Below, piece after piece: positions 4,808 to 63,848 of a DNA stretch of 64,000 nt (positions are counted from its first letter, which is position 1; each line of letters begins with the position of its first letter). The position numbers were made by a program, and so were the translations under genes. The DNA lies in the NCBI RefSeq assembly GCF_988243305.1, contig NZ_OZ547136.1; one strand, given 5' to 3'. The notes beneath the pieces are model-generated. The model saw only the letters and a program-made list of their open reading frames with translations, did not search any database and was not told the origin of the DNA.

Positions 4808-4848
4808 ATTGCCGGATGTGACGCTTAATAAGCGCGTACATCCGGCAA
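4808..4848. repeat. REP-like palindromic unit
   Basis: Inverted repeat tgccggatgt...acatccggca in the yeiL-psuT convergent gap. Confidence 0.5.
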
Positions 4849-4854
4849 TGACAC

Positions 4855-8334: not shown

Positions 8335-8489
8335 GAGGAAATAACCTTAGTGTTTGATGAAGGTTTCAGGTTTCTACTAAAAGATAAAACCATTTAAATT
8401 CATAAAATTACATTCACAAACCGGTCATTCTCTTTGCGCGCATCAAATGTTACAGGGCAGGAAATTTCTGCCCTGTAACACACCTTTTA

Positions 8490-10197: not shown

Positions 10198-11136
10198 TCA
10201 GTTAAAAGGTTGTAAGTCGACGCGCGCCATCATTGCGGCCAACTGCGGACGATCGGTAATACCCACATTGCTTTGACTTACCGCCAGGGCTGCAACAGCT
10301 GTCGCCAGACGCAGTGTGTGTTCACTGGATTCACGCATCAGCAAGCCATAAATCAGGCCACCAACCATAGAATCCCCTGCGCCAACGGTGCTTACGACAT
10401 CGACTGACGGTGGTTTGGCGATCCATTCGCCGGAGGCATTAACCCAAAGCGCGCCTTCGGCACCCAGTGAAATAACGACATGCGCGATACCCTGTTCACG
10501 CAGCGCATGCGCAGCTTCAATCACATCTTTCATTTCAGGCAGTTTACGGCCCGCCCAGATTTCCAGCTCGCGGCGGTTAGGTTTCACCAGCCACGGTGCC
10601 GCTTTCAAACCTGCTACTAACGCTTCACGGCTACTATCAAAGATAATGCAAGGACACTGACTACGCAGGCGAGTCATCCAGTCGGTGAACGCTTCCGGGC
10701 TGACGCCTGACGGTAAGCTTCCGCTGACACAGACCATATCGAACTGACCGAGCCAGCTCAGAGAATCAGTCACAAAGCGTTCCCAGTCGGCGGGAGTGAC
10801 TTCAAAACCCGAGAAGTTGAAGTCGGTCACTTCGCCGTCTTTTTCCGTCAGCTTAACGTTAATTCGGGTGCGCCCCTGTACAACCTGGAAACGGTTGGCA
10901 ATGCCCAGCTCGCTGAACAGTTGCTGAAAACCATCCTGATTGTCTTTACCGAGGAAGCCGCCAACGGTGACATCAATTCCCAGGTCTTTTAATACTTTGG
11001 CCACGTTGATGCCTTTACCCGCCGCATGCAGACCGGTGGTTTTCACCAGGTTCACTTCGCCGCGTTCAATTTCCGGGCAGAAACCAACAAGGTCATAAGC
11101 CGGATTAAGGGTGATAGTAGCAACACGTCTGCTCAT
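10198..11136 (-). CDS. fruK: 1-phosphofructokinase
   Basis: 312-aa PfkB-family ORF; overlaps fruB by 1 nt. Confidence 0.95.
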   Translation of the reverse strand: MSRRVATITLNPAYDLVGFCPEIERGEVNLVKTTGLHAAGKGINVAKVLKDLGIDVTVGGFLGKDNQDGFQQLFSELGIANRFQVVQGRTRINVKLTEKDGEVTDFNFSGFEVTPADWERFVTDSLSWLGQFDMVCVSGSLPSGVSPEAFTDWMTRLRSQCPCIIFDSSREALVAGLKAAPWLVKPNRRELEIWAGRKLPEMKDVIEAAHALREQGIAHVVISLGAEGALWVNASGEWIAKPPSVDVVSTVGAGDSMVGGLIYGLLMRESSEHTLRLATAVAALAVSQSNVGITDRPQLAAMMARVDLQPFN

Positions 11137-12266
11137 TATGCGCCCTCCCCAAGACCAGCAGCGATAGCGTCGCCAATGGCTTTCAGCGCCTGTTCAGCAT
11201 CTGCACCCTGGGCGGTAAAGCGTAGGCGATGACCTTTCTTAACGCCAAGTGCCACAACTTTCATCAGACTACGTCCGTTTGCCGGTTTGCCGGTGCCATC
11301 AAGGTTTGTCACGGTAATATCACTGTTAAATTGTTTAATGGTATTGACCAGCATGGTACCTGGACGAGCATGCAGGCCGTGTTCATTGCGCACCACAAAC
11401 TCCGCGCTTAACACGTCGTCGGTCGGCGCATCATCGCTGGTCAGCAGCGCCAGCAACGTTGCCGCATCCGCTTTCAGCAAGCGGTCAGCTTTATTGTCGA
11501 GTAACAAATCAGCGAGACGCTTAAGAACCGCAATGGGCTGATCGTCATTCATCGCCACACTCACCAGCATGGCTGCCGTTTCGCCGTCCACATCAAAAGC
11601 ATTTGCCGCACGGCTTACCGCAATCGCGCTACGCAGATTGCCTTCGGCGCTATCGCTCAGCCAGATACCCTGTCCGAGGTTCAGCGGTTGTTCATTGATA
11701 GCTTTGGTGACGAAAGTGGCGTCAACTGCCCCCGCCTCTTTCAGACGAGCAGCGTTCAGCGCCTGAAGAGTCAGCAGATCGCTGGCGACGATATCCAGCG
11801 TCAGCATTTCGTTGTCGAGCTTCAGCTGCTCACTCTGCTTTTCGCCCATCAGCAATGCGCGAAGTTCTTCTGCTGTTGTTGCTGACTTCAGTTGTTCAGC
11901 AACGGAATCATCGCTCAGTACGTGGGTCAGCTGGCGTAGCAGGCCCAGATGTTCATCCGAGCTGGCAGCAATACCGATCGCCACGTACGCTACCTGGCCG
12001 TCACCCCAGGTGACGCCTTCCGGGAACTGAAATACCTGAACGCCGGTTTTCAGCACCTGATCGCGGGTGTCGGTAGTGCCGTGTGGAATAGCAATACCAT
12101 TGCCGAGGAACGTAGAGGTTTGCTGTTCGCGCGCCAGCATGCCATTGACGTAGCCTTCAGCTACATTACCGGCCTGCACCAGCGCCGCAGCGACATGGCG
12201 AATCGCCTCTTCTTTGTCTCCGGCCTTTTCGCCCGGATGGATGTCCTGTACGGATAACTGGAACAT
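11136..12266 (-). CDS. fruB: PTS fructose-specific EIIA / FPr fusion protein
   Basis: 376-aa ORF matching FruB. Confidence 0.95.
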
Positions 12267-12280
12267 AGTTCTCCTCTCTT

Positions 12281-12301
12281 GCTGAATTGAAACGATTCAG
12301 C
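12281..12301 (-). promoter_or_regulatory. Cra (FruR) operator in fruB leader
   Basis: Minus-strand GCTGAATCGTTTCAATTCAGC, a palindromic Cra-type site 15 nt upstream of the fruB ATG. Confidence 0.7.
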
Positions 12302-12352
12302 TTCTATGAGAAAAAAAGCGCCAACCTGGCTTAGGGTTAAAGACAAGATCGC

Positions 12353-12368
12353 GCTGAAACGTTTCAAG
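12353..12368 (-). promoter_or_regulatory. Cra (FruR) operator, second site
   Basis: GCTGAAACGTTTCAAG containing the perfect palindrome TGAAACGTTTCA. Confidence 0.7.
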
Positions 12369-12633
12369 AAAGCATAATACTTCTGTTTCAGCACGCAAGG
12401 AAAGCCGTAAAGTTATGAGCAAAAGTTTGATGTGCTGCACAATTTTTTGTCATTTTTCCTAATTGCTGATGGGAAAATCCGTTATCAGCAATTTCATTTC
12501 AGCAGCGTCAGCAGCCAATCAGCAACAGTGAAATGGCATTTTGATTATTCGTGGCGCTTTTGATTTCGCTGTCTGTTTATTTTCTGACAAGCAGCGTAAA
12601 CTCCGCGTCTTCCTCTTCCAGTGATCGACCAGC

Positions 12634-13815
12634 ATGCATAACTCCCCCGCAGTCTCCAGCGCGAAATCGTTTGACCTGACCTCGACGGCGTTTTTAATCG
12701 TTGCTTTTCTCACCGGTATTGCGGGCGCTCTGCAAACCCCGACACTCAGTATTTTTCTTACTGATGAAGTACATGCCCGCCCGGCGATGGTGGGATTCTT
12801 CTTTACCGGCAGCGCTGTCATTGGGATTCTGGTAAGTCAGTTTCTCGCCGGGCGCTCTGATAAGCGCGGCGATCGCAAATCGCTGATTGTCTTTTGCTGC
12901 CTGTTAGGCGTGCTGGCCTGCACTCTTTTTGCCTGGAATCGCAACTACTTTGTTTTGCTATTCGTTGGCGTCTTTCTTAGCAGCTTTGGCTCGACTGCTA
13001 ACCCGCAAATGTTTGCCCTCGCCCGTGAACATGCTGACAAAACCGGACGTGAAGCGGTGATGTTCAGCTCTTTTTTACGCGCTCAGGTTTCACTGGCATG
13101 GGTCATTGGCCCGCCGCTGGCTTATGCCTTAGCGATGGGTTTCAGCTTTACGGTAATGTATCTGAGCGCAGCGGTAGCGTTTATTGTTTGCGGCGTGATG
13201 GTGTGGCTGTTTTTACCGTCGATGCAAAAAGAACTTCCACTGGCGACCGGCACGGTTGAAGCGCCGCGCCGTAACCGTCGCGATACGCTGCTGCTGTTTG
13301 TCATTTGTACATTGATGTGGGGCTCGAACAGCCTGTACATCATCAACATGCCGCTATTTATTATCAACGAACTGCATCTTCCCGAGAAACTGGCCGGTGT
13401 GATGATGGGGACCGCCGCCGGGCTGGAAATCCCGACCATGTTGATTGCCGGATATTTCGCCAAACGTCTGGGTAAGCGTTTCTTAATGCGCGTTGCTGCC
13501 GTGGGTGGCGTCTGTTTTTACGCAGGAATGCTGATGGCGCATTCACCTGTCATTCTGTTGGGCTTGCAGCTGCTAAATGCTATTTTTATTGGCATTCTGG
13601 GTGGCATCGGGATGCTCTATTTTCAGGATTTGATGCCCGGTCAGGCAGGTTCAGCCACCACGCTCTATACCAACACTTCGCGCGTGGGCTGGATCATCGC
13701 AGGATCAGTGGCGGGCATCGTCGCCGAGATCTGGAATTATCACGCTGTGTTCTGGTTTGCGATGGTGATGATTATCGCCACTCTGTTTTGCTTACTACGG
13801 ATTAAAGATGTTTAA
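12634..13815 (+). CDS. setB: Sugar efflux transporter (MFS, SET family)
   Basis: 393-aa polytopic membrane ORF matching SetB. Confidence 0.9.
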
Positions 13816-35059: not shown

Positions 35060-35074
35060 AAAATCCCAAAAAAA

Positions 35075-35100
35075 ACCAACCGTAAAGGTTGGTTTTTTTA
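35075..35100. terminator. Bidirectional intrinsic terminator between proL and yejO
   Basis: Stem AACCAACC/GGTTGGTT flanked by an A run upstream and a T run downstream. Confidence 0.75.
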
Positions 35101-51805: not shown

Positions 51806-51938
51806 CCACCCCGTAGGTCGGATAAGGCGGTCACGCCGCATCCGACATCCAACGCCCGAGCCGGTTGCCTGATGCGACGCTGACGCGTCTTATCTGCATA
51901 CGCCACATCCGGCATACCATGCCGGATGTGGCACATCA
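51806..51938. repeat. REP element cluster (BIME-like)
   Basis: Several GCCGGATG / CATCCGGC-type palindromic units between eco and mqo. Confidence 0.6.

Positions 51939-63685: not shown

Positions 63686-63848
<163 letters not shown>

Follow-up and report, generated by a model that had tools for sequence, protein, structure and literature searches.

The fruBKA operon is the founding target of Cra and a standard model of joint control by Cra and CRP, and its upstream region had been taken to hold just one CRP site. Composite upstream arrays that depend on helical phase and cooperate with CRP are represented by the AraC O2/I1-I2 sites, the CytR-CRP sites and the MalT boxes. Widely spaced inverted half-sites occur in the MlrA box (AAAATTGTACA-N12-TGTACAATTTT), in the NikR operator (GTATGA-N16-TCATAC) and in the PaaX-type operator, a pair of 6-bp inverted repeats about 27 bp apart (TGATTC/GAATCA). 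Quasi-palindromes and tandem repeats in E. coli are also mutational hot spots, at which template switching and slippage operate and for which function is not required.

A perfect inverted repeat in the divergent gap between fruB and setB of E. coli, together with the GCTGA/TCAGC pentamers around it, was compared with these systems. Like the MlrA and NikR operators, the repeat spans about 33 bp overall, with two long half-sites more than one helical turn apart and far upstream of a promoter; its half-sites differ in sequence, however (AATTG alone is common to the repeat and the MlrA box), and, whereas the MlrA and NikR spacers are fixed in orthologous promoters, the spacer here ranges from 1 to 16 nt in genera with a counterpart of the right arm, a half that is frequently absent. 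The left-arm core (L) and a TCAGC copy beyond the repeat (copy 2) form a widely spaced inverted pair, GCTGA-N27(-29)-TCAGC, as in the PaaX-type operator, which differs in sequence and belongs to an unrelated regulon. With the AraC, CytR and MalT arrays the locus shares short asymmetric half-sites in direct and inverted orientation, whole-turn spacing and a position beside a CRP site, but the motifs of those arrays are unlike TGCTGA, and the putative array has no adjacent cognate regulator gene. Mutational hot spots are matched by the inverted and tandem copies, by flanks that change in concert and by a natural 18-bp duplication; they differ in that the pentamer cores of the array are conserved across genera.

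Results

The fruB-setB intergenic region

In the window (the whole 64-kb stretch of DNA that was analyzed), E. coli fruK-fruB (minus strand) and setB (plus strand) diverge from a gap of 367 bp, which contains no annotated features and is present once in 5413/5426 complete E. coli genomes. The window is 100% identical to strain E2865, and a T/C SNP at 12450 distinguishes it from K-12. The genes and the sites discussed below are located as follows.

11136-12266, minus strand: fruB, with its ATG at 12266
12286-12301, unstranded: Cra operator O1, ATTGAAACGATTCAGC, 14/16 to GCTGAAWCGWTTCAGC, conserved
12353-12368, unstranded: Cra operator O2, GCTGAAACGTTTCAAG, 14/16 to GCTGAAWCGWTTCAGC, invariant in the alignment
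12371-12398, minus strand: predicted fruB sigma-70 promoter, with -35 TTGCGT (12398-12393), a 16-bp spacer and -10 TATGCT (12376-12371)
12426-12441, unstranded: putative CRP-type site TTTGA-N6-GCACA (fruB sense AATTGTGC-N6-TCAAA), recognized by sequence and conservation
12437-12459, unstranded: predicted CyuR site GcAcAAtTTtTTGCcATTTtTCC (K-12), from a motif scan (Z 4.58; Table 1 of PMC11408624)
12461-12470, unstranded: left arm AATTGCTGAT, deeply conserved in its core, GCTGA (12465-12469, L)
12471-12483, unstranded: spacer GGGAAAATCCGTT, Escherichia-specific and not alignable in other genera
12484-12493, unstranded: right arm ATCAGCAATT, with core TCAGC (12485-12489, R1)
12499-12503, unstranded: TCAGC copy 2, usually TTCAGCA, in 70/73 species, the conserved distal inverted partner of L
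12508-12512, unstranded: TCAGC copy 3, in 68/73 species, in tandem with copy 2 (E. coli unit TCAGCAGCG twice)
12519-12523, unstranded: TCAGC copy 4, AATCAGCAA, in Escherichia only
12634-13815, plus strand: setB, with its ATG at 12634

The two arms are exact reverse complements over 10/10 positions, on which sequence reading, a repeat finder and a script agree, and they are separated by 13 nt; the repeat cannot be extended, the next pair outward being T/T and the next pair inward G/T, and it occurs once per genome. A sequence-only reading of this DNA had described the same perfect 10-bp arms and 13-bp spacer, placing them about 140 bp from setB and about 200 bp from fruB, and the measured distances to the two ATG codons (140 and 194 nt, respectively) bear this out. 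Its further statement that the repeat is separate from the two Cra operators also holds, since these sit at 12286-12301 and 12353-12368, the nearer being 92 bp from the repeat.

In the fruB-sense alignment, CTTGC and an AGACT/TGCT block are conserved. The promoter predicted there would place the fruB start site at about 12364, inside O2, in agreement with the location of enteric fru operators downstream of the start site (PMC7897506). Relative to this predicted start, the CRP-type site would lie at about -70 and the center of the palindrome at about -113. The CRP-type site is conserved as AAATGTGC-N6-TCTAAA (fruB sense) in all aligned species; a single CRP site activating both fruBKA and setB has been reported (PMC3105977), and its exact position is probably 12426-12441. 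The start-site data set of Kim et al. 2012 contains no start in the fruB-setB gap; its weak setB-assigned start (5 reads; window position 12174, U00096.2 2261425, plus strand) lies 460 nt upstream of setB and is therefore antisense inside fruB. The setB promoter appears to be unmapped.

Perfect arms of at least 10 bp with spacers of up to 30 nt were found at 15 loci in the window, compared with 2.0 +/- 1.3 in dinucleotide shuffles, and the chance of such a repeat inside a 367-bp gap is 0.023; the inverted repeat is moderately non-random. GCTGA/TCAGC is common in this genome, at a background rate of about 5 per kb, and naive expectations are therefore misleading. Measured against the window's own rate, the five copies found within 65 bp compare with 0.32 expected (P ~2e-5), and this cluster is the densest in the 64 kb. 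Because the pentamers are so dense locally, a pair in inverted orientation is unsurprising in this patch, and going from such a pair to 10/10 arms requires five more matches. The 7-mer TTGCTGA/TCAGCAA has no copy in any other intergenic region of the window.

Conservation across Enterobacteriaceae

A FruB scan with one genome per species yielded 80 Enterobacteriaceae loci, at 72 of which the divergent fruB/setB arrangement is kept with an almost constant gap length, and 73 gap sequences were aligned. Conserved blocks comprise the ribosome-binding region together with O1, O2, the CRP-type site, the -35-like CTTGC and blocks proximal to setB. Within the inverted repeat, the L core is the sole conserved part: GCTGA is found at the aligned position in 68/73 gaps, with the extended consensus ATTTGCTGA[A/C]GC. 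Just 33/73 species have a counterpart of R1, a TCAGC 17-21 bp (or 8 bp) away from L, and the stably kept partners of L, copies 2 and 3, fall outside the coordinates of the repeat. The alignment columns between L, copy 2 and copy 3 are randomized, a pattern reported here alongside the conservation of the cores themselves, which points to purifying selection on L, copy 2 and copy 3.

Arm length follows the Escherichia lineages, with 10/10 in E. coli, 9/9 in Escherichia sp. L001 and 8/8 in E. albertii, where the spacer has the same length as in E. coli; in the cryptic-clade species L002-L004 the arms are 6/6 or the core is broken. Copy 4 has ATCAGCAA flanks in common with the palindrome arms. To judge from the alignment, conservation does not extend to the 10-13-10 unit, and the perfect arms with their exact 13-bp spacer are an Escherichia-specific elaboration. 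The sequence-only reading had taken the repeat for the site of a dimeric transcription factor, an architecture like that of the MlrA and NikR operators. A protein-binding role is indeed the most plausible one for the conserved cores, but conservation does not support a unit of two 10-bp half-sites at a fixed spacing of 13 bp, given the different retention of the two cores, right-core distances of 8 or 17-21 bp and a break in E. coli strain RMDEC465. It had also proposed conservation across enterobacteria as a check, which the L core passes and the right arm and the perfect arms do not; since the perfect arms are confined to Escherichia, R1 is found in fewer than half of the species and the E. 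coli break is uncompensated, the lack of palindrome conservation that it had named as evidence against itself was found in part.

Seven species lack setB beside fruB (L051, L055, L059, L065, L072, L074 and L078), and in all seven the array is retained directly upstream of the fruB CRP site; four of the seven have the symmetric form GCTGA-N5-GCTGA ... TCAGC-N5-TCAGC. Because it is kept at fruB where setB is absent, the array belongs to the fruBKA upstream region, and, by this phylogenetic criterion, the repeat element tracks fruB rather than setB.

Spacing and helical phase

The distance from Cra operator O2 to the CRP-type site is fixed at 85 +/- 1 bp. From the CRP-type site to L it is 27-29 bp in 61 species, 18 bp in 3 and 9 bp in 4; the starts of L and copy 2 are 31-34 bp apart in 61 species and 22 bp apart in 4; the CRP-type site and copy 2 are separated by 59-62, 50-51 or 41 bp; and copies 2 and 3 lie 9-10 bp apart in 61/65. 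The array fits the phase-dependent, multi-site upstream class, in which distances shift by whole helical turns alone: indels between the sites measure about 10-11 or 20 bp, with a circular concentration of ~0.9 at a period of 10.5 bp, counted over 3-4 independent indels, and the sites therefore keep the same helical face relative to the CRP site. Spacing that preserves phase is a signature of protein-DNA architecture on duplex DNA, and because there are few indel events, this evidence is suggestive rather than conclusive.

Variation within E. coli

The 33-mer spanning the repeat is exact in 5302/5413 E. coli genomes (97.9%), with one mismatch in 57 and two or three in 54; exact copies of the two neighboring 33-mers are found in 2797 and 4811 genomes. 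Because individual SNPs that are common in the flanks account for most of this contrast, conservation within E. coli is weak evidence of selection. In RMDEC465, a representative divergent strain, the right arm contains GTCAGTAATT and the left arm has no compensating change. Copies 2 and 3 together make up a 9-bp tandem unit (TCAGCAGCG TCAGCAGCC, 12499-12516), and strain E89 (locus L086) carries an 18-bp tandem duplication of the 9-bp TCAGCAGCG unit, giving four units; this copy number is natural variation by slippage. The RMDEC465 break and the E89 duplication thus identify R1 and the copy number of the tandem unit as tolerated variables.

Between E. coli/E. albertii and L002-L004, the segment 12445-12497 is heavily diverged, whereas the flanking gap sequence is nearly identical, which suggests a replaced or fast-evolving segment; E. 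albertii sides with E. coli here. The flanks of L and R1 are complementary at 3.45 positions versus 2.83 on permutation of species labels (P = 0.0015, uncorrected for phylogeny). The excess comes mainly from the single base beside the core, and L paired with copy 3 shows the same pattern, while L paired with copy 2 shows none.

Known motifs and element classes

The sequence-only reading had suggested a search against known E. coli binding sites and had counted coincidence with a mapped site against itself. The Cra, CRP, FlhDC and LsrR motifs that were tested all fail to fit the repeat, the IHF core gives a match of a kind frequent in the window, and the mapped sites consulted all lie elsewhere. 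The arms do not fit the CRP motif TGTGA-N6-TCACA, having GCTGA/TCAGC with 15 bp between the pentamers, and the CRP-type site is separate. Among the published ChIP-exo, gSELEX and DAP entries consulted, none is a peak precisely at 12461-12493, and in ChIP-exo of uncharacterized transcription factors the sole setB-assigned peak is inside the setB ORF. A weak sigma-32 gSELEX peak lies near copies 2 and 3 after coordinate correction, and inspection by eye revealed no -35/-10 pair with acceptable spacing.

No terminator-like site was found on either strand between 12200 and 12700, and the stem of the repeat, in which 3 of the 10 pairs are G-C, closes a 13-nt loop and is not followed by a T-run. The arms have no match to the sigma-70 promoter consensus, and a search of Rfam 15 returned only eukaryotic miRNA/lncRNA matches with E values of at least 3.9, far under gathering scores. 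A dispersed repeat (REP, BIME or IS end) was rejected because each of 5413 E. coli genomes has the sequence at a single site. Mini-ORFs over the repeat (12 codons on the minus strand and 20 on the plus strand) were rejected too, as they show neither a Shine-Dalgarno sequence nor conservation. SgrR, the regulator of setA (a paralogue of setB), was set aside as a less likely candidate, as the word order of the sgrS promoter differs and the invariant TCAGC is missing from it. Two words of that promoter (L081 327-343, upstream of setA), CAGCAATT and TTTTCCC, are also found in the E. coli-specific part of the palindrome.

Discussion

Conservation in the alignment establishes the cores, their order and their helical phase, as well as the persistence of the cluster at fruB where setB is absent. 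The array lies between two divergent promoters and matches no promoter or terminator consensus and no RNA family. The reading proposed for it, judged plausible at a little under an even chance, is that of a phase-dependent multi-site array for a putative factor acting with CRP on fruBKA. The palindrome would then be one pair, L and R1, in a conserved cluster of TGCTGA-type half-sites located roughly 100-160 bp upstream of the predicted fruBKA start, just past a class-I-like CRP site. Such a cluster could serve as a multi-site docking platform for a putative dimeric or higher-order DNA-binding protein that, sitting on the helix face of CRP, would modulate fruBKA and perhaps also the divergent setB in E. 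coli. From this arrangement we infer both protein binding and communication of the bound protein with RNA polymerase or CRP. As for the perfect 10-bp arms and their exact spacer, one dimer may bind them with higher affinity, or repeat-driven mutation may simply have produced them. A point against the array is that over half of the species, along with certain E. coli strains, do without R1.

A more specific version, in which the array TGCTGA(N27)TCAGCA(N4)TCAGC is a third input to fruBKA for a putative regulator, with the E. coli palindrome as the sub-site of highest affinity, is tentative and carries a chance well below even. The same tentative standing is given to the claim of novelty, namely, that a third cis-regulatory input of fruBKA conserved across the sampled Enterobacteriaceae has no description in the literature searched. 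If the phase-locked array is real, the current model of fruBKA control misses either a regulator or a Cra binding mode, and the array could explain the CRP-, CyuR- and FlhDC-dependent changes reported for fruBKA/setB expression. If instead the mutational reading weighed below is the only true one, the locus illustrates in nature how slippage and the sharpening of a palindrome proceed around cores under selection. On either reading the claim is modest.

That the perfect palindrome is a functionless by-product of repeat-driven mutation, with only the pentamer cores, if anything, under selection, is considered unlikely but deserving of real weight, and as regards the cores it is compatible with the array. 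According to this explanation, the TCAGCAGCG units grow and shrink in number by slippage, flanks become alike through template switches from one inverted copy to another (quasi-palindrome correction), and an inverted core of 5-6 bp was sharpened to 10/10 in the E. coli/E. albertii lineage. It accommodates the restriction of perfect arms to Escherichia with 6/6 or broken cores in the cryptic-clade species, the divergence of 12445-12497 from L002-L004 between near-identical flanks, the uncompensated loss of R1 in RMDEC465-type strains and the 54 genomes with two or three mismatches in the 33-mer; the E89 duplication is direct evidence of slippage, and flank complementarity at the base adjacent to the core is the pattern expected of templated conversion. 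However, the 33-mer is exact in a larger share of E. coli genomes than either flanking 33-mer, E. albertii retains its 8/8 arms at equal spacer length, and 33 species from several genera share a TCAGC lying about two helical turns away from L. The same coordinated changes in the flanks might be read as those of a nucleic-acid hairpin, whether a DNA cruciform or a stem-loop in the RNA of an unmapped setB leader or of a transcript from upstream, although this is most improbable. The RNA fold of either strand reaches -13.6 kcal/mol (z ~-3.7, matched by 0/200 shuffles) and the DNA fold -8.9 kcal/mol; several genera have extended arms of other sequence (GCTGACGC/GCGTCAGC, TTGCTGAAG/CTTCAGCAA); and the covariation score of the extended helix is 0.156 versus 0.112 in shuffles (4/500). 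That score nevertheless falls within the range of unconstrained related sequences by the calibration of the tool, in an alignment preselected for R1, and RNAalifold retains five invariant pairs with a covariation term of 0. Flank changes in concert are equally expected from templated (quasi-palindrome) mutation, and the U-tract, terminator pattern, Rfam match and start site in the gap (Kim et al. 2012) that a transcribed hairpin might show were all missing. Because the element is upstream of both inferred start sites, it would not be transcribed with fruB or setB, and conserved helical-turn spacing favors duplex DNA over a hairpin. Cruciform extrusion is unfavorable with a 13-nt spacer and AT-rich 10-bp arms. 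A hairpin function is rated unlikely.

If a protein does bind the array, Cra (FruR) itself is one candidate, with the pentamers acting as auxiliary low-affinity half-sites that would keep additional dimers upstream of the promoter, or in a loop with O1/O2, and so tighten repression of fruBKA. Cra is the dedicated regulator of the fru operon, and its consensus gcTGAAtCGaTTCAgc, a 16-bp imperfect palindrome with a central CG (PMC5888115), has GCTGA/TCAGC at its ends and GCTGAA as the outer operator half. O1/O2 and the array are both palindromic with GCTGA...TCAGC ends and share one operon and intergenic region; in about 90% of species the sequence of copy 2 is GCTGAA, about half of them showing C at consensus position 8, and the best local match is 11/16 (12488-12503). 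The pattern of constraint is nonetheless the reverse of that in Cra sites, whose information resides in TGAA-CG-TTCA with a weak outer gc (PMC5888115): in the array GC and TGA are invariant and the A/W/C/G after them are free, L and copy 3 have G at position 7, where Cra prefers A/T, and there is neither a central CG nor a second half at the proper spacing. Cra sites are 16 bp long, their GCTGAA and TTCAGC being 4 bp apart, and the Cra operators are downstream of the start site, whereas the pentamers here are separated by 15 bp (L to R1), 29 bp (L to copy 2) and 4 bp in tandem (copy 2 to copy 3), and the array is upstream of the CRP site. A consensus scan of 12461-12493 gave nothing at 12/16 or above, the best match of 11/16 being at the level of ~73 chance sites in the window, and the upstream regions of pykF, ppsA, pck, aceB, ptsH and pfkA hold 11 pentamers in 2097 bp, equal to background. 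A Cra operator identity for the palindrome was rejected, given a score far below that of O1/O2 and the lack of pentamer clusters at six other Cra promoters, and the auxiliary half-site proposal is rated quite unlikely. Still less probable, and barely credible, is that the repeat is the site of a regulator already reported for the gap (CyuR, FlhD4C2, IHF or LsrR). The predicted CyuR site abuts the repeat, and setB is upregulated in a cyuR deletion (PMC11408624), but this low-scoring scan prediction ends one base short of the palindrome and overlaps neither arm. For FlhDC, a strong gSELEX peak in the fruB/setB spacer and reduced fruBKA/setB mRNA in an flhD mutant (PMC9962212) are set against matches to the FlhD4C2 box (AAYGSSNNAAATAGCG-N10-12-CGCTATTTNNSSCRTT) of only 15/28 at the repeat (12452-12493) and at best 17/28 in 12267-12800, compared with a shuffle mean of 16.7 for the best match; this candidate was dismissed, the matches being at chance level and the published spacer box (window 12687-12729) falling inside setB. 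An IHF core could be seen in TATCAGCAATTTC (12483-12495), which agrees with WATCARNNNNTTR at 12/13 positions, but the window has 130 such one-mismatch matches versus ~89 in shuffles and the right arm is not conserved, and at one-mismatch stringency the core match at the right arm is not meaningful. Among the PPTP-seq rows examined, lsrR-to-setB is the sole transcription factor-to-setB entry, with a weak DAP-seq signal; LsrR was excluded, as the TGAACA/TGTTCA repeats of the lsr control region were not found in the fruB/setB gap.

Additional observations

The FlhDC-box positions in Table 1 of PMC9962212 seem to be offset by ~228 bp from U00096.2, as deduced from the ptsH and fliA rows, and several of the boxes lie inside ORFs (for instance, within setB codons 18-32 and at the 3' end of ptsH). 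At O1, an extra conserved GCTGAA is present five bases beyond the 16-bp Cra site (TTGCTGAATTGAAACGATTCAGC; 12279-12301), generating GCTGAA-N9-TTCAGC. A semi-conserved GCTGAA half-site at 12385-12393 (fruB sense GTGCTGAAAC) is situated between the predicted -35 and -10 elements of fruB, a position reminiscent of operator O1 in Vibrio cholerae. Inside setB, GCGAAATCGTTTGACC (12661-12676, codons 10-15) matches the Cra consensus at 12/16 positions, probably by chance.

The conserved blocks proximal to setB (12529-12607) consist of TGAAAT, two copies of TTTTGATT, CTGTTTATTTTCTGAC and GCGTAAACTCCGC. The copies of TTTTGATT form a direct repeat at 12539-46 and 12558-65, 19 bp apart, and GCGTAAACTCCGC holds the best conserved -10-like hexamer, TAAACT (12597-12602), without a good -35. 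A second perfect 10-bp inverted repeat, AAAAGCGCCA/TGGCGCTTTT, has its arms 228 nt apart at 12314-12323 and 12552-12561, each within a conserved block: the first belongs to the fruB leader, between O1 and O2, and the second lies upstream of setB. Elsewhere in the window, perfect inverted repeats with arms of 12-15 bp and spacers of 3-18 nt were found at 4808-4849, 8448-8480, 31590-31617, 35069-35100, 51902-51933 and 63796-63828, several of which resemble terminators or REP-type elements.
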